DNA of 60,760 bases, counting the filler, from Basidiobolus ranarum (lineage: Eukaryota), in the NCBI GenBank assembly GCA_040143965.1. It is 5 parts of 5 records of this genome, joined end to end, with 100 filler letters (N's around TTAATTAATTAA, not from the genome) between each part and the next. Parts side by side here need not be neighbours in the genome. Positions count along the whole stretch, not along the records: positions 48,718 to 60,760 come from JASJQH010007446.1; 4 more parts are not named here. The stretch is one strand, 5' to 3'. The notes under the pieces were generated by a model. That model searched no databases and had not been told where the DNA came from. It was given only the letters and a program-made list of their open reading frames with translations. Position 1 is the stretch's first letter, and every line of letters begins with the position of its first letter. Both the position numbers and the translations under genes were made by a program. Of this stretch, positions 2,383 through 58,814 are shown piece after piece.

Positions 2383-3477
2383 ATGACCAACAATCTCTTT
2401 GAACCTATTCAAGTAGGTCGCAACAAGTTAGAACACCGCGTTGTACTAGCCCCGTTAACACGCTTCAGAGCCAATGACCAAGGAGTCCCCCAGGATATTG
2501 CACAGCGTTACTATGAGCAACGTGCAAGCAAAGGCGGGTTGCTAATTACTGAGGCTACGTTTATTTCTCCAGATGGTGGAGGGCTTCCACACGCTCCAGG
2601 AATTCACACCCCAGCTCAGATTGAAGCCTGGAAGAAAGTGACTGATGTTGTACATAAGAAAGGAGGAGTAATTTATCTACAACTTTGGTTTTTAGGTAGA
2701 GCAGGTATGAGTATGTTTCTACCTGATCACCATCAACCCGTCTCCGCCTCAGCTATTGCAATTACTGGTCAAGTGCATCCAGGAATGCCCTATGAAACAC
2801 CAAGAGCGTTAGAGCTGCATGAAATTCCACCAATTGTAAATTCTTACAAACAAGCTGCTTTAAACGCTATTCAATCCGGCTTTGATGGTGTAGAGATCCA
2901 TGGAGCCAACGGTTACTTGATTGATCAATTCCTCAATTCTCACAGTAACAAACGTACTGATGCATATGGAGGAACCATTGAAAATCGATGCAGACTTGCT
3001 TTGGAAGTTATAGATGCAGTGACAAAAGCTGTTGGGGAAGATAGGACAGCAATTCGTCTCTCCCCTTACAACACATTTCAAGACATGAAAGAAGAAGCCC
3101 CGTTAGAAGTGTTTTCATATTTAACAACCGAGATTCAAAGATTGTATCCAAATATGGCATACCTACATTTCATTAAAGCTCGTATCTGTGGAGATACAGA
3201 GGTCGAGAGCCAGGAACAGCCTTTAACCCTAGAGCCATTCCAAAATATTTGGAAAGGTCCTTTCATATCTGCTGGTGGATACACAGCTAAATCCGCTATC
3301 GAAACGGCAGTAAATTCCAATGAACTTGTTGCCTTTGGCCGAGAATTCATCTCTAACCCAGATTTACCTAAGCGCATTAAAAACCAATGGGAATTGAATC
3401 CTTACAACAGAAGTACCTTCTATACCCCTGGTCCTGAGGGATATATCGACTATCCTTTCTATAGCAACTCTGACTAA
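2383..3477 (+). CDS. Old Yellow Enzyme / NADH:flavin oxidoreductase (12-oxophytodienoate reductase-like), single exon
   Basis: 364 aa ORF with LAPLTRFRA, ITEAT, GFDGVEIHGANGYLIDQFL (catalytic H/N/Y), RTDAYGG, FGREFISNPDL and TFY...GYIDYP. Confidence 0.96.
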   Translation: MTNNLFEPIQVGRNKLEHRVVLAPLTRFRANDQGVPQDIAQRYYEQRASKGGLLITEATFISPDGGGLPHAPGIHTPAQIEAWKKVTDVVHKKGGVIYLQLWFLGRAGMSMFLPDHHQPVSASAIAITGQVHPGMPYETPRALELHEIPPIVNSYKQAALNAIQSGFDGVEIHGANGYLIDQFLNSHSNKRTDAYGGTIENRCRLALEVIDAVTKAVGEDRTAIRLSPYNTFQDMKEEAPLEVFSYLTTEIQRLYPNMAYLHFIKARICGDTEVESQEQPLTLEPFQNIWKGPFISAGGYTAKSAIETAVNSNELVAFGREFISNPDLPKRIKNQWELNPYNRSTFYTPGPEGYIDYPFYSNSD

Positions 3478-12111: not shown

Positions 12112-12211
12112 NNNNNNNNNNNNNNNNNNNNNNNNNNNNNNNNNNNNNNNNNNNNTTAATTAATTAANNNNNNNNNNNNNNNNNNNNNNNNNNNNNNNNN
12201 NNNNNNNNNNN
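12112..12211. other. Artificial contig linker
   Basis: N44-TTAATTAATTAA-N44, a multi-frame stop spacer. Confidence 0.98.
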
Positions 12212-24294: not shown

Positions 24295-24394
24295 NNNNNN
24301 NNNNNNNNNNNNNNNNNNNNNNNNNNNNNNNNNNNNNNTTAATTAATTAANNNNNNNNNNNNNNNNNNNNNNNNNNNNNNNNNNNNNNNNNNNN
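24295..24394. other. Artificial contig linker
   Basis: N44-TTAATTAATTAA-N44. Confidence 0.98.
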
Positions 24395-24452: not shown

Positions 24453-24525
24453 GGACTGATAGCTCAGTGGTTAGAGCACCTTGCTAGAGTGAAGGAGGTC
24501 CCAGGTTCAAATCCTGGCCAGACCA
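24453..24525 (+). pseudogene. tRNA-like sequence (pseudo-tRNA) in a repeat context
   Basis: 73 nt with A-box TAGCTCAGTGGTTAGAGC and perfect T arm CCAGG-TTCAAAT-CCTGG. Two mismatches in the acceptor stem, a G-G in the anticodon stem, and anticodon AGA (Ser) without a long variable arm. Confidence 0.75.
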
Positions 24526-36463: not shown

Positions 36464-36563
36464 NNNNNNNNNNNNNNNNNNNNNNNNNNNNNNNNNNNNN
36501 NNNNNNNTTAATTAATTAANNNNNNNNNNNNNNNNNNNNNNNNNNNNNNNNNNNNNNNNNNNN
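36464..36563. other. Artificial contig linker
   Basis: N44-TTAATTAATTAA-N44. Confidence 0.98.
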
Positions 36564-37381: not shown

Positions 37382-38404
37382 ATGTGCGCCAAACACACAA
37401 TTTCCTCATCCATGTCACCTCATTATTTGCCCACCGATTCTTCCAACGCTCATGACTATTCCTTGGCACCACCACCAAAGCTTCGCAAGACACAAAGTAT
37501 GTGCTTGACGCGTGAAGAGTTTCTCTTCAGTCAAACCAGTAAATCATCTGTTTTGGACTCAGCAGGTCAATACCATACTTTGCCCTGTTACAATGGTAAA
37601 GAAGATATTCTCAAAAGAATATCTGCCAACACCGTATGTATTTTTCACTATGAATAATATAGTGAAAGAGAGAAACTGATCAACGTCTTGAATATTATAG
37701 CTCGATGATTTAATTTCAGGCAAATATACTGATCTGTATGACAACCTCATCATCATCGATTGCCGATTTTCCTATGAATACAATGGCGGCCACATTCAAG
37801 GTGCAATCAATCTAAATACCAAGTCCGAGTTAGAAGAGTATTTCTTCAACAGTTCTCGTAATTTTGAACGTACTATTGTGATCTTTCACTGCGAGTTTTC
37901 TGCCCAAAGGGGCCCAAGAATGTAAGTACCCATTCTAGAGTTATCTATATAGAGATAAGCCTAATCAAGTTCTTTTCTAGGGCACTATATCTTCGCAACA
38001 AAGATCGAGAACTGAATATAGCCAACTATCCCAACCTCTTTTTCCCTGAATTGTATGTGCTTGATGGTGGATATCGCCACTTCTACAGCACACACAAAGA
38101 CAATTGTGAGCCTCAGCAATATGTTGAGATGAATGCCACTCAATTTGATTCCGAATGTAAGAAGGGGATGATGCGATTTGAATCCAATTTCTTAATGAAA
38201 AGAAGTCGATCTCGCTCAGTGAGCTGGCCTAGAGAACCTGCTTCAGTGAAGGTCTCACTGATTGATAGAAGAACTCTTTACGCTCGTCGCTCCAATAATT
38301 CGAATGAATATGGTTCCTCTAGAGGCAGCCTTCTCAATCGACTTCGAACAAGATCCGACTCTGAGCCCATGAAACCCAACTTTCCAAACTTTCAGCCTTT
38401 ATGA
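37382..38404 (+). CDS. cdc25: Cdc25/Mih1 M-phase inducer phosphatase (rhodanese fold), 3 exons, 298 aa
   Basis: Exons 37382-37633, 37701-37921 and 37981-38404. Motifs IIDCRFSYEYNGGHIQGAIN, FHCEFSAQRGPRM (HCX5R) and YPNLFFPELYVLDGGY. Confidence 0.93.
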
Positions 38405-46900: not shown

Positions 46901-48617
46901 TTTGGTCAATTAGTCAACATCTATCAAACTCGTAACATTTCTCAAAAACTCGTCCCAAACACCTCAAATTCCGCCAAGACTCAATAACCACTCAATTATG
47001 CTGCAATCCCTCACAAGTCAAGTTTCTAATAGATGACCAAAGGGAAATTGATATGTGTATGAAATCACCCTAATTAGAATTCCTAAAGCTTGGACTTCCT
47101 CATTTTTCCTGCCACATGCAGCTAGCTTTCAGAAGGTATTCTTCTAGATTTTAATGATATTCAAACTTCAACTGGCTTTTCAGTTGGTTTCCATACTCAC
47201 ATTTTCTACAGGATACAAGAAAACCTACCACTAGTGAGAATAAAACCACAAAAGCCAGATTGATCTCTGATGTGGTTAAATAATTCTGTAGCAAATCATT
47301 ATAGTGTGTCTGGTGTGCTTCAGGTAAACACAACACAAGAAAAATTTCACTGAGATCAAAGAATTCGGGTTACCGGACAATATTTGACATATACACCCGT
47401 AAGATAATCTAATGGTGGAAACATGGCTTTAAAATCCCTTGTCTGTGATAAGTGTATTTCCATTTGAACAATTTTCGAACCATGAGGTTCAAATGAAGCG
47501 CATTAATATTTTTTCGATAAAGTGCAGCGTAGATTTTGTAAACTCGTTAAGTAAGAACATCTCCAGCGGAACAGGCTGCTATTAGTGACCCAGACGCCAC
47601 ATCTACTTCAGCCAACCTCCACCAAACCAATACTACTTCAGTGTCAGTTCCAGAATCTCTAAAATATAACTAATTTTAGATACCCAGTCTCCGCTTACTT
47701 AGCTAACTTTTACTGGGAAATAACACATAATTTGCCCCAATATAAAAAACCTAACAGAGGTGCAGAACTTCCAGGATAAATACTGCCATCGATAGTTAAA
47801 CCTGGGTTTACTTGCATATAAAAATTAAAATTCCCAGCAATCAGTTGTTACCGAAAGCACCAGCTTGTTTAATTCAGGAATTTGGCACATATTTATATTT
47901 ATCGTATGCCCCGCTTCTTGCTTGTTTTTAAACACTATTCCAATAGAATCCATTGGAATAAGCCACAATATCTCCTGTACTAACAAGCAGACAATATTTA
48001 CAGCAATCCACTTACCGCTATAGCAGCAGGTAGCCTTCGCCACATACAATATATACCTTCCAGAATCGTATTTTCCAGTTCGCTGATCTTAAGCCATCGT
48101 AGTCTGATTTAGTACAATTGACGTTTCCCATGGAAGTGGTATATATCTAGAATAATCCAACAGTCAAAACCTGATCTCTCAGTAGCTATCAAAAAACAAT
48201 CTCAAGAAAGTCAAAGGATTTGCAAAGTAACAGTCGGGTTTTTTTTCTAAAAGCGACTGCTGCTCACTTGCCAACTGAGTATCAAAGTGCACCGGTTTGA
48301 ATTAGAAACGCCAATGAGGATTGTTTGTCCCGGAGCCGAAGTTGATGCTTTCAGGTTCTAACTAGATAGCTGCAATACATGAAATACCGGATATTCTGGT
48401 GTGTAGAGTAAAACATGACTGCCCTGATGTCCATTCACAATAGAGAATCGCTATGCCGTCATCATGGGGTTTGCAAATATATACGATAAGCACCTATCTC
48501 CTTAGAGCCGTGGCGAAATTGACCTATTTCGGAAAAAATGGGCAAATAAAATTAGAATATAATAAGGTAGACCCAAAACATACGGAAATGCTCACGGATC
48601 CATTTTTTGCGTAAAGA

Positions 48618-48717
48618 NNNNNNNNNNNNNNNNNNNNNNNNNNNNNNNNNNNNNNNNNNNNTTAATTAATTAANNNNNNNNNNNNNNNNNNNNNNNNNNN
48701 NNNNNNNNNNNNNNNNN
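48618..48717. other. Artificial contig linker
   Basis: N44-TTAATTAATTAA-N44. Confidence 0.98.
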
Positions 48718-50233
48718 ATATATCCTGAGTTAAAAGGGTTTGGCTAGTGGACTAACTGTCCACATGAGTGTCGTATAACCATCAACGTAGATAGAGCAAA
48801 AAGACTGGGGAGTTAGACCTATGGGCCGTTGACTCACTGGGGAGAAATGATTGCCTGCGCTATTGATTTGTTTAAGGTGGGCCATTTTAGTGAGTGATGG
48901 GAAGTTACCATATATGTACTCGGTTAAACTTTCACATTAAGTATACTCCGAGAGCTGTAGAACATTCCATTGGGGCACTCGCGACCCATGCTCTACTGGG
49001 CCTAGGAACCTTACATCGATCCAGTCTATATAGGGGGTTAATTTGAGCGTACCAGGTTATACTAGACTGATCCAACACAACGTGGTATACTCGATTAAGT
49101 TTAGGCAAAGTTTAACCCACCACGGCTGTCACGGTACATTGACTCAGGAACAATGAAGATGGTAGTTTGATATGCTCGTAGATGTCACTTGATTTAAGTA
49201 TGAGGTGGGTGTACAGGGATTGGAAATACAAAGTTTGTAGAATGAACATGAACGAAACCAGGTCTTTTCTTGGACAAGCAACATTGGTCTGTTTAGACAG
49301 TGGCAGTATACTTGTTACTGACTAGCCACCGTCACACTGTCCAGTGGACAGACGAGTACGAAGTTACACACATGAATTTGTATGAGGCATCATGAAATGG
49401 GTTATGAGTTATACACCAGGGCTTCAACATGGTCTCAAGCATATCTCCAGATTTTGGGATTAGGAATTTGGCACAAATGTCAACCTCAATTTCATGCTGC
49501 TTTATGTACATGCCAGATTTACTATATTCACACTGTTGCATATGAAAGATTCTTACAAAAGTATAAATATGGTGATGGTTTCAATGCTGGGCTTGATCCA
49601 AACTTGGTGATTATTAGCTGTGGGCTCCTCTTGCAGAAAAAATATATAGATGCTTTGCATAAGGTCCATAACAGCAAGTGCAGTGCTAGCTACAGACACT
49701 TTTTTGTTTTCCAACAACGTGTTTCTATACTAATGTGAACAATATAAGGCGGTTGTTTTGATTCTAAATACAAAAGAATTAAGGATCCGATCTATGAGGT
49801 GATCATCTAGCCCATAGCAAAGGACTAGACTACATTCCATGCAGGTTGGCTGGCGAAACGAATTCCTTATTCAATAAATCAGAATAAGAGCTATTGAAAA
49901 TTATATACCTGCCACTACAAGTGTAATAAAATTCAGAAATCGTCGTTTGGTGGCACTGATGTAACCAGTGAGTCATTTTATAATAGCATTTTCTTGGGTT
50001 TCATCAATTTGTGCTATCGTCAGCATCTACTACTGCCTAACAGCAAATAGATGCTGTTGATCATCTATCACAACGAGATAAAAAAATGATTTCTCCCTAT
50101 ATAAGACCCCGATACTGCTGCACATACGTTGTGGTTCTTCCAGCTCATCTCTTGGAATATAGCTCACTGGTACTGTTTATTCTGATAATTATTGTAACGT
50201 TTTTGCTTTTTCTTTTAGTTCGTGTGTGAAAAA

Positions 50234-51762
50234 ATGGGTACACTACAAGTTGCTGCTTATACGACAAGCATAGTTGTTTGCGTTGGTTTTGCCTTGTTTG
50301 CTTTGATTTGGAGTCGCAAGTTAAAGGAAAAGAATAAGGACGCTGACTTCTTCCTGACCGCTAGAAATTCTCAACCAACTGCAAAAATTATGTGGAGTTT
50401 TTATGCTGCTGCTGTTGGTGCATGGTAAGATCCGGTTTCTTGAGTAATACTCCATAGTTGTTTTATAGCTTGATTTCCTACAGGACTCTATTTGGCCCGC
50501 CTAGCTACGCATTATATGCTGGAATTCTAGGAATAACATTTTACGCTATCTCATGTGGAATTCCCATATTTCTCGTTGCATTCTTTGGTGGTAAAATCCA
50601 AGAACGTTTTCCCAGAGTTCAATCAATGGGTGACTTTGTTCGTTTGCGTTTCTGCCCTACACTTCAGGCTTTAGTCACCCTGATTATGCTGTTTAACATG
50701 AGTATTGGTCTGGCTGCGGAATACACATCAATTGGAGATCTCTTTGAGACAGTGATTGGAAGCAACCGTATACCTATCGTTCTGGTCATTGGCATATCCA
50801 CAATGCTGTACACGGCGTCAGGTGGTCTGTCAGTCTCCATCATTACCGATCAGGCCCAAGCCATTTTCAGTCTACTGTTTGTAGTGATCATGGCGATATA
50901 TATCGCAGTCACTTTCCGCGTTCCACTGTCATCGGAACTTCCTCCGGAAATTGCTCCAAATTACTATGGCTATTCTTCAATAATAGTTATGCCAATTTCG
51001 TTATCCTGCGCATCCTTTTATAACGAAGGATTTTGGCAACGTGTTTGGGCTTCCGCTGATGATCGTTCACTTAGAACTGGAGCTCTCTTGGCTATGGGAA
51101 TGGTAACAGTTGTTATTTTTTTCCTTGGATTTTGTGGATTTTTAGCTGCTTGGGCGGGATTAAATATCTCTAACCCTAACACAGTACTCTTCACCCTTCT
51201 TGGAGCCGGAGGTGAAGCACCTATTTGGATTACGGTGTTAGTAACAGTTTTAGCTGCTACTATGAACCAGTCCGCTGTTGATAGTTTACAAAATGCACTC
51301 GTGGATAGCGTTTCTTCGGTACTATTGAAGGGAAAATCTGTGTGGTGGTCGCGTCTTGTTGTTGTCATTGTCAACATACCACTGATAATCATCTCTTTAC
51401 AAGGATATCCAGTGATGAATCTGTTCTTACTATCGAATATGGTTGCGTCGTGTTGTACCTGACCCATTCTACTTGGTCTCTCTCGTCGCCTACAACCTTA
51501 TGTGACTAGCGGTGCTGTCGTATCTGGGTGGATCATATCTTTCCTTTCGGTTCTTGTATATGGAGCAATCCATCAGGGAAATGTTGGTGATGGCCTTCAT
51601 TTTACTTTCTTTGGTGAGTATGATTGGCCACCGTTTTTATTAGCGATTGTATTTTCAGTTATTGGCGTATTTCTGTATGGAATCCCAGCCCGTTACATTC
51701 GTGGTCCCGGACGTAACGTATTCGATCACGAAGTAGATGTTCCAGTATTGAACAAAAAGTAG
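50234..51762 (+). CDS. Sodium:solute-symporter-family (Dur31/NCU01977-like) transporter, putative thiamine or thiamine-precursor transporter; contains an in-frame TGA at 51460-51462
   Basis: Exon 1 50234-50424, intron 50425-50483, exon 2 50484-51762. Motifs FFLTARNSQ, YTASGGLSVSIITDQAQ, FWQRVWAS and SAVDSLQNA. 389 aa to the TGA, 489 aa if read through (...ASCCT*PILLGL...). Substrate inferred from the adjacent TPP aptamer. Confidence 0.85.
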
Positions 51763-51906
51763 AGCCTTTTCGGACCATGAAATCCTCAGATTACATTTTC
51801 TTGGTTGAAATTGAGAATTTGAGGATTTTGCAGATAATTTTTATTTCTTTTTCCAATTTCATTTTCGTCATTTGCCTTGTTATTCAAGATGTATCGAATA
51901 CAGACT

Positions 51907-52028
51907 GACAACTAGGGGTGCTCTGTGACATTTCATACTGAGGTAAGGGTCAGTGAGATGTTGCAAATGGGCTGAGATTATACCCTCGGAACCTGACCAG
52001 GATAATTCCTGCGAAAGGGAAAGTTGTC
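51907..52028 (+). ncRNA. TPP (thiamine pyrophosphate) riboswitch aptamer in the 3' region of the transporter gene
   Basis: P1 GACAACT (51907-13)/AGTTGTC (52022-28); P2 GGGGT/ACCCT; long P3 TGTGACATTTCA..CTGA/TCAG.TGAGATGTTGCA; conserved GCTGAGA; P4/P5 ACCTGACCAGGATAATTCCTGCGAAAGGGA matching the TPP consensus. Confidence 0.95.
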
Positions 52029-53241
52029 TAGTATTCTGATAATTTAACCTTATTTTGTAGTCTCAATAATAAATTATTTATATTCTGTTCCTAATTTCTA
52101 TTGACTGTTGGTTAGAGTAGTATCCGGACTTCTTGGGTGCGGGGCAACCTCAGATACCAGTTTGAAGACGATATATTGAATTCAAACACATTCTCGGATT
52201 CATTGCTTACAATGATCGGGAAGACAGCATTAATGTAGTTATTGATAGTTTGGCTCGCTCATGTCTGTGCTATGAAGCTTTACTTCCTGGTTATCAAGGT
52301 TAATTTGTTAGTCAAGAGACTTGATCTACTATGGTGTGGTGTGGTGAAGTAATAGTATTAAAATACATACACTGATCATGCCTATATAGAGAGTAGAATG
52401 CTTTTATCATTTGAATAAAACGAAAGAAAGTACTTGTGATGAGTTGTTTAAAATGCCAAGTTGTATCACGTTATACGAGGACTTCCAGGGTTACATTTCG
52501 AAGTAAGACTGGCTTTAGGTAGTTGAGATTTATTTTAAGCTGCACTACCATGAGATTCTTATTCTTATGAATCATTTATTTTCTCCCAGGATTGGTGTTC
52601 TACAAAAATAAGTAAAAGAAAAAATACTAACATAATGATTGGACTTTTCGAAAATGGCTTAACTTTCAATATACTCAATGGAAATAGAGGGATTTTGTGT
52701 AGAATTTTCTCTTGAGTTTGTGCAATCGGAATGTGCTAATCGTATCTGTACTGCTAGAACTATATACATAGTAAATAATAAATCGAAATGTTTATTTGTT
52801 TACAACGCTCACTACCAATCGAACTTAAAAGAACTGATAATATATGCCTCGGAATGAAGAAATTACTACCATATAGAGTTTCATGGGTATCACTAGTAAC
52901 ACATAAATATGTCACCTTAACAAGTATGTACAACCAGTTCCGAAGACTCAATCAGTTATTTAAATCAGCCAATGGAGTGTCAGAAGTCTCTCAAACAAAG
53001 CAATGTACAAGTATTAATGTGTTGCAGAGCACAAGCTTGCGTATTGAGATGCATGGGGATTTAGTGATGACCATACTGATGGAAGTGATGAGAATGGCAC
53101 AAGTAGTGGGGGGAGATGATGACAAAGGAGCTAGTTGTGGACTAAATAGTTTGCATACCGGACTTAGCCGGTCATCTATATATGGAAGGCAAGTCAACTC
53201 ACTCTATTACTCTACAAAACATCGCATCACACCACCGCCCC

Positions 53242-53427
53242 AATCTCCACCATTTTGAGGAAGAAAGGAAGGTGATGGTTTCTTGGAGATATCAGACCAG
53301 AGAAGGGTCCCTGAAGAAATGCTGGTCGTACCCGAGGTGCAGAACTCTTGACACACCCATTTTAGCCTAGTGTGAGATCGATCGATTTGATATATGAATT
53401 GGTCAAATTTCTATTTAGGGCGATCAT
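53242..53427 (+). repeat. Dispersed repeat; inverted copy at 60575-60760
   Basis: 186 nt ungapped manual alignment to the reverse complement of 60575-60760 with about 15 mismatches. Confidence 0.92.
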
Positions 53428-53890
53428 AGATGAAGCAAGAATACGACTCTTCATATGAAGTCAGATTTATAGCTAAAGCAATAGAGATTTTGTCAAGCAC
53501 CAATGTAATAATGTATAAACATCAATTTATTACTATTAAGCATGATTTCTTATGAAACATTGAACGATTGGCGCTAGAAGGAATACTGGTTTTATAATAA
53601 AATGTTTTACGTAGGTGGTTTGTTTATGTGGTACAGTCTCAACCGAAAGTCATCATAAATATGATAGAATATTTACTCACAATACCTACAATTAAAATAA
53701 TGTTCAAAAAGTACAAACATACGCATACACAATGGCAACGAAATAAAGGGACTTGGGCGAAAAATATATATCCGAGAGAGGTACGGAAATTGAGGTTGCA
53801 CACATGCGTATTTTGATTAGATTAAAATGTATGGAAACAAGTGCAATTTTCAATTTGCAGTAGAAGATGGTCGCTTTACATGAAAATCAA

Positions 53891-56800
53891 TCATGTCGTT
53901 TCTTGAAACTCCGAGCAGTTTTTCGTTAACCATTTTTGAAGCATCTGATTCAATTCTCCAAGTTTTACTGGCTTGGCTAAGAAGTCGTTCATTCCTGATG
54001 TCATACACTCCTTTTGTGTACTTTCAATACAACTGGCACTTAAGGCTACAATAGGAATATCCCGAACTGGTGCATCAAATAACTGTCGAACATCTCTGGT
54101 AGCTTCAAATCCATCTTTTATAGGCATAGCACAGTCCATTAAAACCAGAGAGAACTGATCTCCGGGTGCTTGTTTTAATAGATCCACCGCTTCAGCACCG
54201 TTTTTGGCTCCTGTTGAACGATAACCTAGGCGTTTCAATTGTCGATGTACGACCTCCATATTGACAGGATTATCTTCGACCACTAGAATCATATACCTAC
54301 CATTAACATGAACTGCATCACCAACTACGCCCACTTCCACATCTTTTTTACCAAGGCCACCAGGCGCCTTTTTAGCACTTGTGTTTAATAGCTTTCGGGA
54401 ATTCTTCTTTTTTGTAGTGATCGGTGAAATGGGTGACACTGTATCAGAATCATGAGGTGGTGGGGTGAGCGGTCCGGTATTTAGGTGAAGTACTTCAGAT
54501 GATTTTAGCTTGATATCTAGTTCCAGCTTCTCTTGATAAAAGTTTAGAAGCGCACACGTCAACTTAAATTTAGTCACTGGCATCGATATCCCAACTACTG
54601 TATCATCGAATTGGCTCACGACGGTTTGTGCTAAATGAAGTGATGATAGTGGAAATATCAATAGAATGTGGAGTGTAGGATCAAGAGCCTTAAGCTTGGC
54701 CACTGTATCCGAAAGTGAATTAACGGCTTCGTTTCCTGTTACATTTAGAAACACGCACTGGAAAGGATCGGATGTAGACTGGGTCTGCTTCAAAAGTCCA
54801 AGTCCCTCACTGTACGTTTTAGCTTGGACATGCGACCGGACTAGATCTTGAATCAACATGGCAATTGAGGTATCTTCAGCATCTCCAGCACATATTGTCA
54901 AGCATTTCTGTGTATGGATCATATCTAAATATTTGCTTTCAATCACGCGGTTAGGGTCTGAATCAGTAAAATGCCAAGTGAACCAAAACGAGGACCCTTC
55001 GCCAAGGGTAGATTCCACGCCAATTTGCCCTTCACCAATTTCAACCAACTCTTTACATATTGCTAACCCAAGTCCCACTCCATCGTATTTACGAGTCATG
55101 GATCCATCGATTTGATGGAAAGAGCGGAAGAGATGCTTATTAATGGCCTCTTTAGCAATGCCGATACCTGTATCTGTAACCCTAAATCGAAGAGTAATTC
55201 TATTGGTGTCTAGAATACTAGATTCGATTTGAGGCTCTAGCCTCTCCACGTGGATGGAAACCTGTCCTTGGTCTGTAAACTTGAATGCATTACTTAGAAG
55301 ATTCATTAGTACCTGCTGAACTCGAGCAGAGTCTCCAATAACGTTCTTCGGTACGTTCGGCTCACAGGTGCATGTTAATTTAAGGCTTTTCTCCTCCTTT
55401 TGTTTGGAGAAGACATTCATGGTAGATTGGAGTAGATCGGACAGACTGAAATCCATAGGTTTAAGTTTAATCTTTCTAGCTTCCAATTTGGCCATATCAA
55501 GGATGTCATTCACCACTCGTAGCAACACATCGCTGGCAGTAAGCATGATCTTCAACATCTCCCTTTGTTCCAATGTCAATTGGGTATCTTCAAAAGCACT
55601 CACTAGGCCGATAATGGCATTCAGTGGAGTTCGGATTTCTGCCAAATAGAATATATTAGAGTTATGAATCACAAGTGAAACTTCAAATGCAAGGCTTTAC
55701 CATGTGAGGTGTTTGCGAGAATAACACTTTTCGCTCGATTGGCGGCATTTACTGCTTCCATTTGAATTTCTTGGTTAATTTTTTCGCTAACCAGTTTATC
55801 ATGAGATATAGCTAAAGCAACTTGTGTGGCTATCTGCTGAATCAAAGTACATTGTAGTTCGCTCCATTCTAAACCAGGTACGTGACGTGCTGTGATCCAA
55901 CCCCAGCTCTCATCATCAAGCATGATCGGAATTCCAATAAAAGCACACTCTTGGCTAAAGTCAGGAGGAAATAGGGTGGCTATGTTTACACCATTCTCGA
56001 CAGTTTGGTCGATGTGTCGAAATGGCTCGCTCAGTTGATCCGAACTATAACCAAAGGTACGATTTAAGAATGAAGAGGTGGTTACGTTTCCGCGGAGTGC
56101 TTCAGCCTTGACTGTAAATTTGGGTTGATCGGTAACATTATGGCATATCAATATGCAGTCAGCATCCAATGCTTTTCTAACTTCATCAGCTGTCTCCTGC
56201 AGGATATCCTCAAGACCAAACCTAGCCCGGATTTTTCCTGAAATGTTGAGCACCATTTGCTTGCATTCTGTTTGCATCCGCTGTTGTATAAGAAGCTCAT
56301 GTCTCAGCTTGCTCAATATGACGTTCGTACGAACACGTGCGAGTAGCTCTTGGGCTGAAAACGGCTTAATGAGATAGTCATCCGCACCTGCCTCCACACC
56401 CTCAGCAGAAGCCGCGGGGCCTGCTCGAGCTGACAAAAAGATAATAGGAATGGTGGCAGTTTTAGGATTTTCTCGAAATGCTTTCAATAGCCCTAATCCA
56501 TCTAAATGAGGCATCATTACATCTATGCAAAGGTTCGGAGTGTTAATGAACGTTCAAAAGTGAAAATAAAAGTTTCACTTACCCGAGAGGACCAAGTCTG
56601 GAACTCGGAAGTTGATAATCTCTAATGCTTCAAGCCCATTCGTAGCTAATAAAACCTCGAACTCATCTTCTAGTAAGGTGTATATGTAACTACGCATATC
56701 ACTATTGTCATCGGCTAATAGAACACAAGGCTTTTGGATACTAGAATCAAGAGTACAGGCAGGAAGATTAGTGCTGTCCGGTAAACTCACATGCTCCTCA

Positions 56801-58814
56801 ATACGAGGTTGAGAATCCGTGGTAGTAGAGCCCCATTGCTGCATTTCATCTAGAAACAGAGTTGCGGTTTTCTTGATTCTAATATCAGGCAATTTCGGCG
56901 TATCACCTACAATAAACTCTGGGGAGATATGGGATTTTCCAGTTGGTATTGTCACATTGAATGCAGTTCCGACCAACTCCTTTGACTCGACATCAATTGT
57001 TCCCAAGTGGAAACGGACTAACTCCTGAACAAGGGCGAGTCCAATACCGGTGCCCTCATAAGAACGAGCTTCTACACTTCTTACACAATAGAAACGATCG
57101 AAAAGATGTTTCATGTCCTCTTTAGAAATGCCTATACCAGTATCAATCACTGATAACTGTATTGCCTCAACGGTTTCCCCATCTGGCATCTCCATAATAG
57201 TGGGCTTCAAGCTGACCGATACAATACCACTTTTGGTGAATTTAAAAGCGTTCGAAACTAAATTGAGTAAGATCTTCTCCCACATATCCTGATCAACATA
57301 GACAGGAAGTTCAGTAATCATCTCTGGGACATTTATAACAAACTCAACTCCAAGGGTAACTGCCGTTGATTCGAAAGAAGAAAGCAACTCTCGAGTAAAC
57401 TGTGAAATATTGGTTTGTTGAAAAGCAGCAGTATTCTTTCCAGCCTCGATTTTGCTAAACTCAAGAAGAGTATTCACCAGTTTTAGCAGACGTCTGGCAT
57501 TCCTTTGGACCATCAGCATATTCTTTCTAGCTTTAGGAGGGAGGGTATGATCATGCAAAGTCTGCTCAATAGGGCTAAGAATCAAAGGCAATGGTGTCCG
57601 AAGTTCGTGCGATACATTCTGAAAAAAAGCAGTCTTAGACCGATTCAATTCGGCCAAGGTTTCTATTTGTTTTTTCTCCTCTTCACAAGTAATACCCGCT
57701 TTAATTGCTGTTGTAACATACGCAGCGAGATGTGAAAAGAAATCTTGGTAATCACTATCAAGAAGTCGTAAAGTGTGTAGTCCACAGACCATCACTGCCG
57801 ATATCCGTCCTTCTGGCGCCCTAGAAATGAATAATGGAAGAAACACAGCTCTAGTACCATCGGGTAGTCTAATAAGCTCCGCTTCACCAGAAGCAGCAAC
57901 TTTGGCAACTGGCCAGTAAGCTGGGCAAGTATCATCATTATCCTTGATGGATACTAAATGTTCAGGAATGCAAGGATTGATTACACCGTCAGTAACATCT
58001 TCACCGAAACTACTTGTTACGAGCTCCAATGTCTTCGAGCCGTTCGATTGATAGGGGTAATAAATCATGGACCATGGTACATCAGTATTATTCTTCTTCA
58101 GAGCAGATGTAACTGAGTAACATGCTTCTTGATGGTTTTGAGCAACACGAGTAAGCTTGCCAACTTCATTCAGCGCAGTCAATCGCCTTTGACCAATATA
58201 CTGTTGCGTCTGCTCAAAAGTGGTATTTAACGCACCAACAACTTTACCATCTGTATCGAATATCGGTGAAATAGAGAAGCGAAACCACGTCTCTTCTTCG
58301 TAACCAGCTCGTTGCAACAAAAATATTTGATTCTCCAAGAAAGCGCCTTTTCCAGTTTCATATGCTTTTGTAATCAGAGGTTTCATAATATGCCATATTT
58401 CGGCCCAAACTTTATGCCCAGGCTCGCCAAAGGCTTTTGCAAAAGGGTTATTAATCAGTCGAAAGCAATGCATTATGCAATAGTTTTACCTTCAGGATGT
58501 TTAGTACCAAGAATTGCTGACCAAGCTTGATTGTATAACAGCAAGTCATCTTCACCGTAATATATAGCCATTGGGAAAGAAGAATGAAGAACGAGATTTA
58601 AAGTCCATTTAAAACAATCTGACCAATTTTCTTTCGGTCCTAAAGAAGTTTGAGACCAGTCTTTAAGTTCAACCAGCTCTGAAACTGTAACCCCAGGGGC
58701 TTTCAATTCTGGCACGTAGCTTTCCACATCGTTGGTATTAAACTTAAGATATGTCATAATATTCGAAAAGCTATGTTCTTCAGAAGAACAGTGAGTGGGG
58801 GCTGTTTTCAACAT
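53891..58814 (-). CDS. Dual hybrid histidine kinase (PAS/GAF-like, HisKA-HATPase, REC, GAF, HisKA-HATPase, degenerate REC, REC), 4 exons, about 1581 aa
   Basis: Exons 58814-58490, 58433-56583, 56522-55701 and 55638-53891 sum to 4746 nt in frame. Two H-boxes (VSHELRTPL, TSHEIRTPL), two N/G-box sets (NLVSNAFKFT, DTGIGI, GTGIGL; NLLSNAFKFT, DTGIGI, GVGLGL), receivers ADDN..SDVMMP..KPF and VEDN..MDCAMP..KP. Confidence 0.93.

Follow-up and report, generated by a model that had tools for sequence, protein, structure and literature searches.

A thiamine pyrophosphate aptamer past the stop codon of a probable thiamine transporter gene in the early-diverging fungus Basidiobolus ranarum

Thiamine pyrophosphate (TPP) riboswitches are, to our knowledge, the only riboswitch class known in eukaryotes, and we know of no studied fungal case that acts other than through an intron in the 5′ untranslated region (UTR) or the 5′ part of the coding sequence. 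Here we analyze a TPP aptamer that lies past the stop codon of a transporter gene of Basidiobolus ranarum (assembly GCA_040143965.1), a member of the Basidiobolomycota in current taxonomy. The locus falls in JASJQH010007446.1, one of five records whose joined parts make up the 60,760-nt stretch of DNA analyzed (the window), and positions are counted along that whole stretch. The nearest described systems involve a transporter of the SSF family: Dur31 of Candida, an SSF protein homologous to NCU01977 of Neurospora crassa, is described as a proven thiamin transporter under the control of a TPP riboswitch in an intron after ~58 codons (Donovan et al. 2018, PMC5997356). Mukherjee et al. 2018 name the DUR31/NCU01977 group the “urea transporter family” and report its riboswitches as intronic, of types II and III (PMC5882874), and McRose et al. 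2014 grouped NCU01977 with chlorophyte sequences in the SSSQ clade (PMC4260697).

In an Rfam scan of the whole window at the gathering threshold, one of the two matches was to the TPP riboswitch model RF00059 (59.5 bits, gathering threshold 54.3; E = 3.7e-9), which aligned over its full length (1 to 105; Table 1). A permissive Rfam scan of positions 48000 to 54500 (E up to 5) returned no second TPP match. The unconstrained minimum free energy (MFE) fold of 51904 to 52030 is the canonical P1-to-P5 structure (−43.4 kcal/mol, z = −3.0), equalled by 0 of 200 shuffles. P1 comprises 7 bp (GACAACU at 51907 to 51913 with AGUUGUC at 52022 to 52028). P3 (51920 to 51972) is extended by a 40-nt insertion, as in eukaryotic aptamers, and ends in the 8-mer loop GGUAAGGG; P3a is absent. 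The ligand-contact motifs described for TPP aptamers, CUGAGA (the pyrimidine sensor) and UAAU plus GCG (the pyrophosphate sensor) (PMC5882874), are all present in the Rfam alignment, at 51972 to 51977, 52003 to 52006, and 52011 to 52013, respectively. A sequence-only reading of this DNA had proposed a complete TPP aptamer here, to be checked with Infernal and RF00059, and both the above-threshold match and the P1-to-P5 fold bear it out. We conclude that the aptamer is genuine, chance being excluded for the aptamer itself; it is predicted to bind TPP and would be functional in the explanation that we favor below. A GAAUAC just upstream, which may extend P1, has an alternative partner in the coding sequence (GUAUUCGAU, 51718 to 51726) through a 9-bp match that is at chance level.

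The gene upstream, on the + strand like the aptamer, has two exons and encodes an SSF transporter (Pfam PF00474 in exon 2, E = 5.1e-6). When ten family proteins were searched against the window by tblastn, residues 1 to 64 and 65 to 489 of the best relative mapped to the two exons and nowhere else, and the resulting model matches the 492-amino-acid (aa) Basidiobolus proteins end to end. The closest protein comes from Basidiobolus meristosporus (492 aa, 88% identity), followed by one from B. ranarum (73%) and then by relatives from Mortierellaceae, chytrids, and green algae. The window protein terminates in VPVLNKK*, versus VPVLNKQMRV in the orthologue, and its end point is the same as that of its relatives; because these ends coincide, the aptamer is not concealed in a terminal coding intron.

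To place the transporter within its family, we considered database labels, taxonomic spread, and the genomic surroundings of its relatives. UniRef labels some of them “Urea transporter,” another name given to relatives being Na+/solute symporter, and the taxon spread of the window protein’s relatives matches that of SSSQ. Neither a named DUR31 nor NCU01977 was among the profile-search matches listed, and direct orthology was not reached. Twenty-two metagenomic relatives were fetched, and a permissive Rfam scan was run on 11 of the 22 loci; three loci (L002, L011, and L015) are cut inside the coding sequence, and their 3′ sides fall outside the comparison. Gathering-level TPP aptamers are carried by 4 of the 22 (L005 to L008), all upstream of the coding match, and weak upstream TPP matches occur at two further loci (L017, 27.8 bits; L021, 28.9 bits). 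Because 4 of 22 relatives carry upstream aptamers, the proximity of a TPP aptamer is characteristic of this protein group, not coincidental. Judged from these sequence relationships, the protein probably carries thiamine (or a thiamine precursor) and belongs to the SSF “urea-transporter-like” group together with Candida DUR31 and Neurospora NCU01977. The proteins of L005 to L008 are algal-like (~40% identity), and their short-P3 aptamers are followed by an ATG within ~10 nt past P1; this is a 5′-UTR arrangement with no space for splicing.

The B. ranarum aptamer stands at the other end of the gene. Its P1 begins 145 nt past the transporter TAG on the same strand (141 nt for the Rfam match), and the coordinates and the two-exon model agree with the sequence-only reading in placing it on the transporter strand, downstream of the stop. 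The intervening spacer (51763 to 51903) contains neither AATAAA nor ATTAAA and no GTRAG-type donor (GT[AG][AT]G). The spacer also holds a hairpin with a strong 14-bp stem (GAAAUCCUCAGAUU, 51779 to 51792, with AAUUUGAGGAUUUU, 51816 to 51829). AATAAA is found within 400 nt downstream of 10 of the 14 long open reading frame (ORF) ends in the window, and its background is 0.84 per kb per strand, equivalent by our own calculation to a ~29% chance of one per 400 nt. Beyond the aptamer, nothing coding was found on the + strand from 52061 to 53890. No SSF remnants were detected downstream on this strand by tblastn with the ten family proteins; none of the 10 downstream ORFs between 52116 and 53816 has a significant Pfam match (hAT at 0.035 and MCM5_C at 0.038 are insignificant); and the largest downstream ORF (158 aa) has no homologue among 5.8 billion proteins. 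A downstream gene on the + strand was rejected on these three grounds. The next gene is convergent and encodes a hybrid histidine kinase with duplicated GAF-HisKA-HATPase-REC modules. Since no + strand gene lies downstream and the sole nearby AATAAA is 40 nt past P1, a 3′-UTR placement is the best reading of the aptamer’s position; and since the aptamer lies past the stop, with no gene downstream and the first AATAAA just past P1, a platform acting at the 3′ end is the most economical reading of its role.

The explanation that we favor, with a probability of roughly one-half, is that the TPP aptamer resides in the 3′ UTR of the transporter mRNA and represses the transporter at high TPP via the 3′ end of that mRNA. 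We infer that the aptamer would be transcribed within the transporter mRNA, that transcription would end at the AATAAA past P1, and that high TPP would alter the 3′ end of the mRNA and thereby lower transporter expression. This could happen in two ways. In version (a), aptamer folding would free the branch and 3′ splice site at 52043 to 52060, and a 3′-UTR intron starting from the donor in the P3 loop (51943) would then be removed; the junction, 180 nt past the stop, would make the mRNA a target of nonsense-mediated decay, and use of an acceptor at 52115 would delete the poly(A) signal too. In version (b), closure of P1 would release 52038 to 52046, which would pair with the AAUAAA region and weaken cleavage and polyadenylation.

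A partition-function model of 51763 to 52130 was computed unconstrained and with the aptamer fold imposed. Imposing the fold raised the modelled unpaired probability of the branch from 0.34 to 0.62 and that of the pyrimidine tract and AG from 0.35 to 0.52, and it lowered that of AAUAAA from 0.52 to 0.22. In the unconstrained MFE structure, UGAGAUUAUA (51973 to 51982) is predicted to pair with UGUAGUCUCA (52056 to 52065) in a 10-bp helix across the candidate acceptor, and AAGUUGUC (52021 to 52028, the 3′ strand of P1) with GAUAAUUU (52038 to 52045); in the folded state, AUAAUUUA (52039 to 52046) can pair with UAAAUUAU (52070 to 52077) over the poly(A) signal. In the model, this three-strand layout resembles an expression platform, with weak statistics.

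A second aptamer placed downstream of its gene was found at metagenomic locus L001, whose protein is 77% identical to a Podila (Mortierellaceae) relative. The TPP match (3299 to 3421; 42.4 bits, short of the gathering threshold, with a locus E of 3.3e-6) lies ~430 nt past the stop (TAG at 2865 to 2867) on the same strand. The gene has a plain intron of ~110 nt, without an aptamer, at the same protein position as the intron of the window gene (residue 64/65). Comparison of the two loci suggests that downstream placement of the aptamer is common to two early-diverging lineages.

Several observations weigh against control through the 3′ end. The donor in the P3 loop has an unpaired probability of 0.78 in both modelled states, and because it is equally unpaired in the two, any ligand dependence would have to come from the 3′ side. 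On that side, the helix between the CUGAGA core (J3-2) and the acceptor was rejected as a distinguishing feature: its −10.8 kcal/mol is equalled by 31% of 2348 random 102-nt windows and by 17% of 2000 shuffles (P = 0.17 to 0.31). Pairing of the P4/P5/P1 3′ strand with downstream sequence gave P = 0.024 (three tests, uncorrected), and for the 3′ region as a whole the fold is no more stable than those of shuffles (z = −1.14). Among the relatives, the L001 contig ends 4 nt past the aptamer match, and its aptamer is preceded by a CT-rich tract of ~250 nt resembling the tract before L001’s own ATG; because of this resemblance and the end of the contig there, the L001 aptamer could instead be a 5′ leader belonging to another gene. 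At L003, the one other fungal-like locus whose 3′ flank is complete, no aptamer was found. The transporter gene itself has an in-frame TGA, which may mark this copy as a pseudogene or may be a base error. Finally, predicted 3′-UTR TPP aptamers in diatoms are reported to be unresponsive (10.1101/2022.01.04.474978). Of the 3′-end platform put forward in the sequence-only reading, then, the placement stands, with no + strand gene downstream and an AATAAA just past P1; pairing between the aptamer and the splice or poly(A) signals is not clearly above chance.

Pairings of the kinds described in other TPP riboswitches were also sought between the aptamer and its surroundings. For an α-α′ pairing of the NCU01977 type, which joins the right shoulder of P1 over a long distance to a site close to the distal donor, the best duplex (−15.8 kcal/mol) is equalled by 60% of shuffles, and the longest contiguous run, an AU/GU-rich stretch of 11, is matched by 41% of shuffles, so that a run of at least 11 bp does not exceed chance here. 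Pairing of P4/P5 with the candidate donors, of the NMT1/THIC type, is weak (−6.4 to −10.7 kcal/mol). Two inverted repeats joining the coding sequence to the aptamer (I1 and I7) were rejected; by our own estimate, ~0.6 to 0.8 such pairs are expected by chance per 650 nt.

An unlikely alternative is that the aptamer is non-functional or disused, either standing beside a pseudogenised paralogue or binding TPP in a 3′ UTR without regulating. The in-frame TGA (51460 to 51462) would yield a truncated product without the last quarter of the protein, and Basidiobolus has several paralogues of this transporter (at least four in B. meristosporus). The TGA is followed by C (a UGA-C context); its alignment column holds Cys in the B. 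meristosporus orthologue and A, A, L, L, P, V, I, and I in the other eight proteins. Homology continues unbroken for 99 codons beyond it, and an intron bypassing the TGA was rejected because the homology runs straight across. A disused element would also fit the lack of a statistically detectable expression platform, and the diatom 3′-UTR aptamers offer a reported precedent (10.1101/2022.01.04.474978). Yet the aptamer scores above gathering with its ligand-contact motifs intact, and the coding sequence has no frameshift and retains 88% identity on both sides of the TGA; because of these last two features, any inactivation took place recently, or else the TGA is an error of base calling.

The sequence-only reading had proposed a particular case of 3′-end control, in which TPP governs the use of a 118-nt intron (51943 to 52060) that excises most of the aptamer and alters 3′ processing or mRNA stability. 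The sequence features that it listed are all in place: the TAG stop (51760 to 51762), GTAACG (51713 to 51718), GTATCG (51891 to 51896), GAG/GTAAGG with its GT (51943 to 51944) inside the P3 loop, TTTAAC (52043 to 52048), TAG (52058 to 52060), and AATAATAAA (52065 to 52073). The candidate, GAG/GTAAGG followed by TTTAAC-CTTATTTTG-TAG, fits the local splice grammar, as judged from introns for which protein alignment or long flanking ORFs give confirmation (50425 to 50483, 37922 to 37980, and, on the − strand, 55700 to 55639 and 56582 to 56523), with local donors GTAAGA, GTAAAG, and GTAAGT and branches CATAAC, CATTAAC, and CCTAAT. Taken individually, these splice-like motifs do not exceed chance expectation: there are 97 GTAAG over the two strands of the window (0.80 per kb per strand), 64 of these 97 have a YTRAY...YAG 45 to 200 nt downstream, and the expectation for this loose composite is 0.064 per 122 nt. 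A strict composite that includes the pyrimidine run occurs only 12 times in 121.5 kb, among them the candidate and the introns at 50425 to 50483 and 37922 to 37980 (expected 0.012 per 122 nt and 0.029 per 298 nt, the distance from stop to acceptor). This rarity supports the candidate intron in a way that is suggestive, not proof.

Such an intron would place its junction 180 nt past the stop, and in Guillardia theta the related SSSQ gene reportedly has introns that interrupt a TPP aptamer (PMC4260697). We nevertheless hold TPP control of this intron to be quite unlikely. In the model, imposing the aptamer fold leaves the accessibility of the loop donor unchanged (0.78), and a 20-bp P3 closing an 8-nt loop would, on general grounds, be a poor U1 target. 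At 118 nt the intron would be about twice as long as local introns (59 to 62 nt for the confirmed ones, 55 to 85 nt overall), and the AATAAA lies outside it, which would therefore leave a tiny terminal exon; an acceptor at 52115 used with the loop donor would take out the AATAAA. Regulation is retained after P3 truncation in NCU01977 and NMT1. In L001, which holds the sole other downstream-placed aptamer found, P3 lacks GTAAG.

It is equally hard to credit, in our view, that the aptamer is the 5′ leader of a separate unit after the transporter, that is, of an unannotated gene that is very small, non-coding, or recently lost, with its adjacency to the transporter explained by clustering or a lost tandem paralogue. 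Every fungal TPP riboswitch so far characterised is either 5′ of the gene that it regulates or within it, as are all six upstream matches among the relatives examined here (L005 to L008 at gathering level; L017 and L021 weak). The 250-nt CT-rich tract before the L001 aptamer has its counterpart before the L001 start codon, and the T-richness of the window spacer is shared by the sequence upstream of the transporter ATG. Against this stand the 141 nt from stop to match, which leave scant space for both a terminator and a promoter, the + strand without coding sequence from 52061 to 53890, the convergent orientation of the next gene, and the intactness of the aptamer, unexpected for a long-orphaned element.

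The broadest form of control through the 3′ end, that early-diverging fungi (Basidiobolus and Mortierellaceae) regulate a DUR31-type thiamin transporter through a post-stop aptamer and a hitherto undescribed 3′-end platform, the aptamer’s P3-loop donor joining an acceptor just past P1, with TPP-dependent splicing that destroys the aptamer and marks the mRNA for decay or removes the poly(A) signal, is very unlikely as a whole.

If repression through a 3′-UTR aptamer is true, the aptamer would have been redeployed to the opposite end of the gene within fungi, in the same transporter group. Alongside plant THIC, it would also offer a second and independent system in which to study riboswitch action in a 3′ UTR, and it would single out the window protein as the likely thiamine importer in Basidiobolus.

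Table 1. Positions of the transporter gene, the aptamer, and candidate processing signals in the window
Feature	Positions	Strand	Basis
Exon 1, ATG at 50234; residues 1-63 and two Trp-codon bases	50234..50424	+	tblastn, P0002 residues 1-64 on 50234-50425
Sole coding intron, 59 nt, GTAAGA...CCTACAG, without aptamer	50425..50483	+	tblastn, alignment, Rfam scan
Exon 2, TAG at 51760-62, in-frame TGA at 51460-62	50484..51762	+	Pfam, protein alignment
T-rich spacer from stop to aptamer	51763..51903	+	sequence read
GAAUAC, possible P1 extension via GUAUUC 52031-36	51896..51901	+	inference
TPP aptamer	51904..52038	+	Rfam match, MFE fold
P3 terminal loop GGUAAGGG with donor-like G/GTAAGG, GT at 51943-44	51942..51949	+	sequence, MFE fold
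Branch-like TTTAAC, pyrimidine run, and TAG; candidate 3′ splice site	52043..52060	+	sequence, motif composite
AATAAA, sole canonical poly(A) hexamer within 51500-52400	52068..52073	+	40 nt past P1, 306 nt past stop
Possible alternative branch CTAAT or TTGAC with acceptor GGTTAG	52091..52115	+	sequence read, inference only

Other elements were noticed in and around the locus. The histidine kinase gene occupies 53891 to 58485 on the − strand, with introns of 60 to 62 nt at 55639 to 55700 and 56523 to 56582. The 1.8 kb between the convergent genes (52100 to 53890) contains no recognisable gene and increases in G+C at 53000 to 53500; an ORF at 52921 to 53064 has a weak match to the hAT dimerisation domain (E = 0.035), and the region may be a decayed transposon. 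Elsewhere in the window, a 73-nt tRNA-like gene at 24453 to 24525 was called by ARAGORN as Ser (anticodon AGA), with an Rfam score of 51.8 bits. The long variable arm expected for tRNA-Ser is missing and some stem pairs are mismatched; the element may be tRNA-derived or its anticodon mis-assigned. Four pairs of 44-N runs, each with 12 bases between, recur every ~12.17 kb (12112 to 12211, 24295 to 24394, 36464 to 36563, and 48618 to 48717), and because of this regular spacing they suggest masking and not assembly gaps. Among the metagenomic loci, positions 330 to 470 of L017 form a palindrome that matches the plant MIR898 model on either strand, at 49 and 47.9 bits and thus under the gathering score of 75, probably as an inverted repeat and not a miRNA.

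Compared with known systems, the locus is closest in content to the fungal NCU01977/DUR31 riboswitches as these are described by Li and Breaker 2013 (PMC3597705) and in PMC5997356 and PMC5882874. Both have this class of aptamer, probably this group of transporters, and the expected logic, in which TPP represses a thiamin importer. In those systems the aptamer is housed in an intron of 350 to 900 nt, located toward the 5′ end of the coding sequence and accompanied by alternative donors and premature stops. In the present locus, by contrast, the coding intron is 59 nt long and has no aptamer, the aptamer lies past the stop, and no α-α′ pairing rises above chance. Of what characterizes types II and III, the intronic ones of fungi, the locus has the SSF “urea-transporter-like” permease and lacks the aptamer within a coding intron.

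The likeness to plant THIC, as described in PMC5997356, consists of an aptamer past the stop with splice-like and poly(A) signals nearby; a mechanism acting at the 3′ end is conceivable. In THIC, however, the regulated donor is upstream of the aptamer and splicing removes the processing site (PMC5997356), whereas here no GTRAG-type donor precedes the aptamer and the only good donor is inside P3. Likewise, the AATAAA at 52068 lies outside 51943 to 52060 and would fall inside an intron only with the hypothetical acceptor at 52115.

In algae, 3′-UTR TPP riboswitches are reported on SSS-family and other genes; the aptamers of SSS-family transporters are found in either UTR, 5′ or 3′, according to lineage, often with a splicing-free mechanism (PMC4260697). 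SSSQ of Guillardia theta has splice sites inside the aptamer, as the candidate here does, but located in its 5′ UTR; that report’s hosts are algae and cryptophytes (PMC4260697). The sole fungal 3′-UTR placement that we found in print is that of TPP aptamers in eIF5B copies of Postia placenta, a gene unrelated to thiamine, which the structure-based method of those authors could not validate (PMC5882874). We found no publication on riboswitches in Basidiobolus, in a search outside which fall the supplementary locus tables of PMC5882874 and PMC5997356, which may record such placements; in a survey of medically relevant fungi, Basidiobolus does not occur. We conclude that the B. ranarum locus is neither a member of the fungal intronic types nor a copy of plant THIC and that the position of its aptamer, past the stop codon of a thiamine-transporter-type gene, is new for fungi in the literature found.

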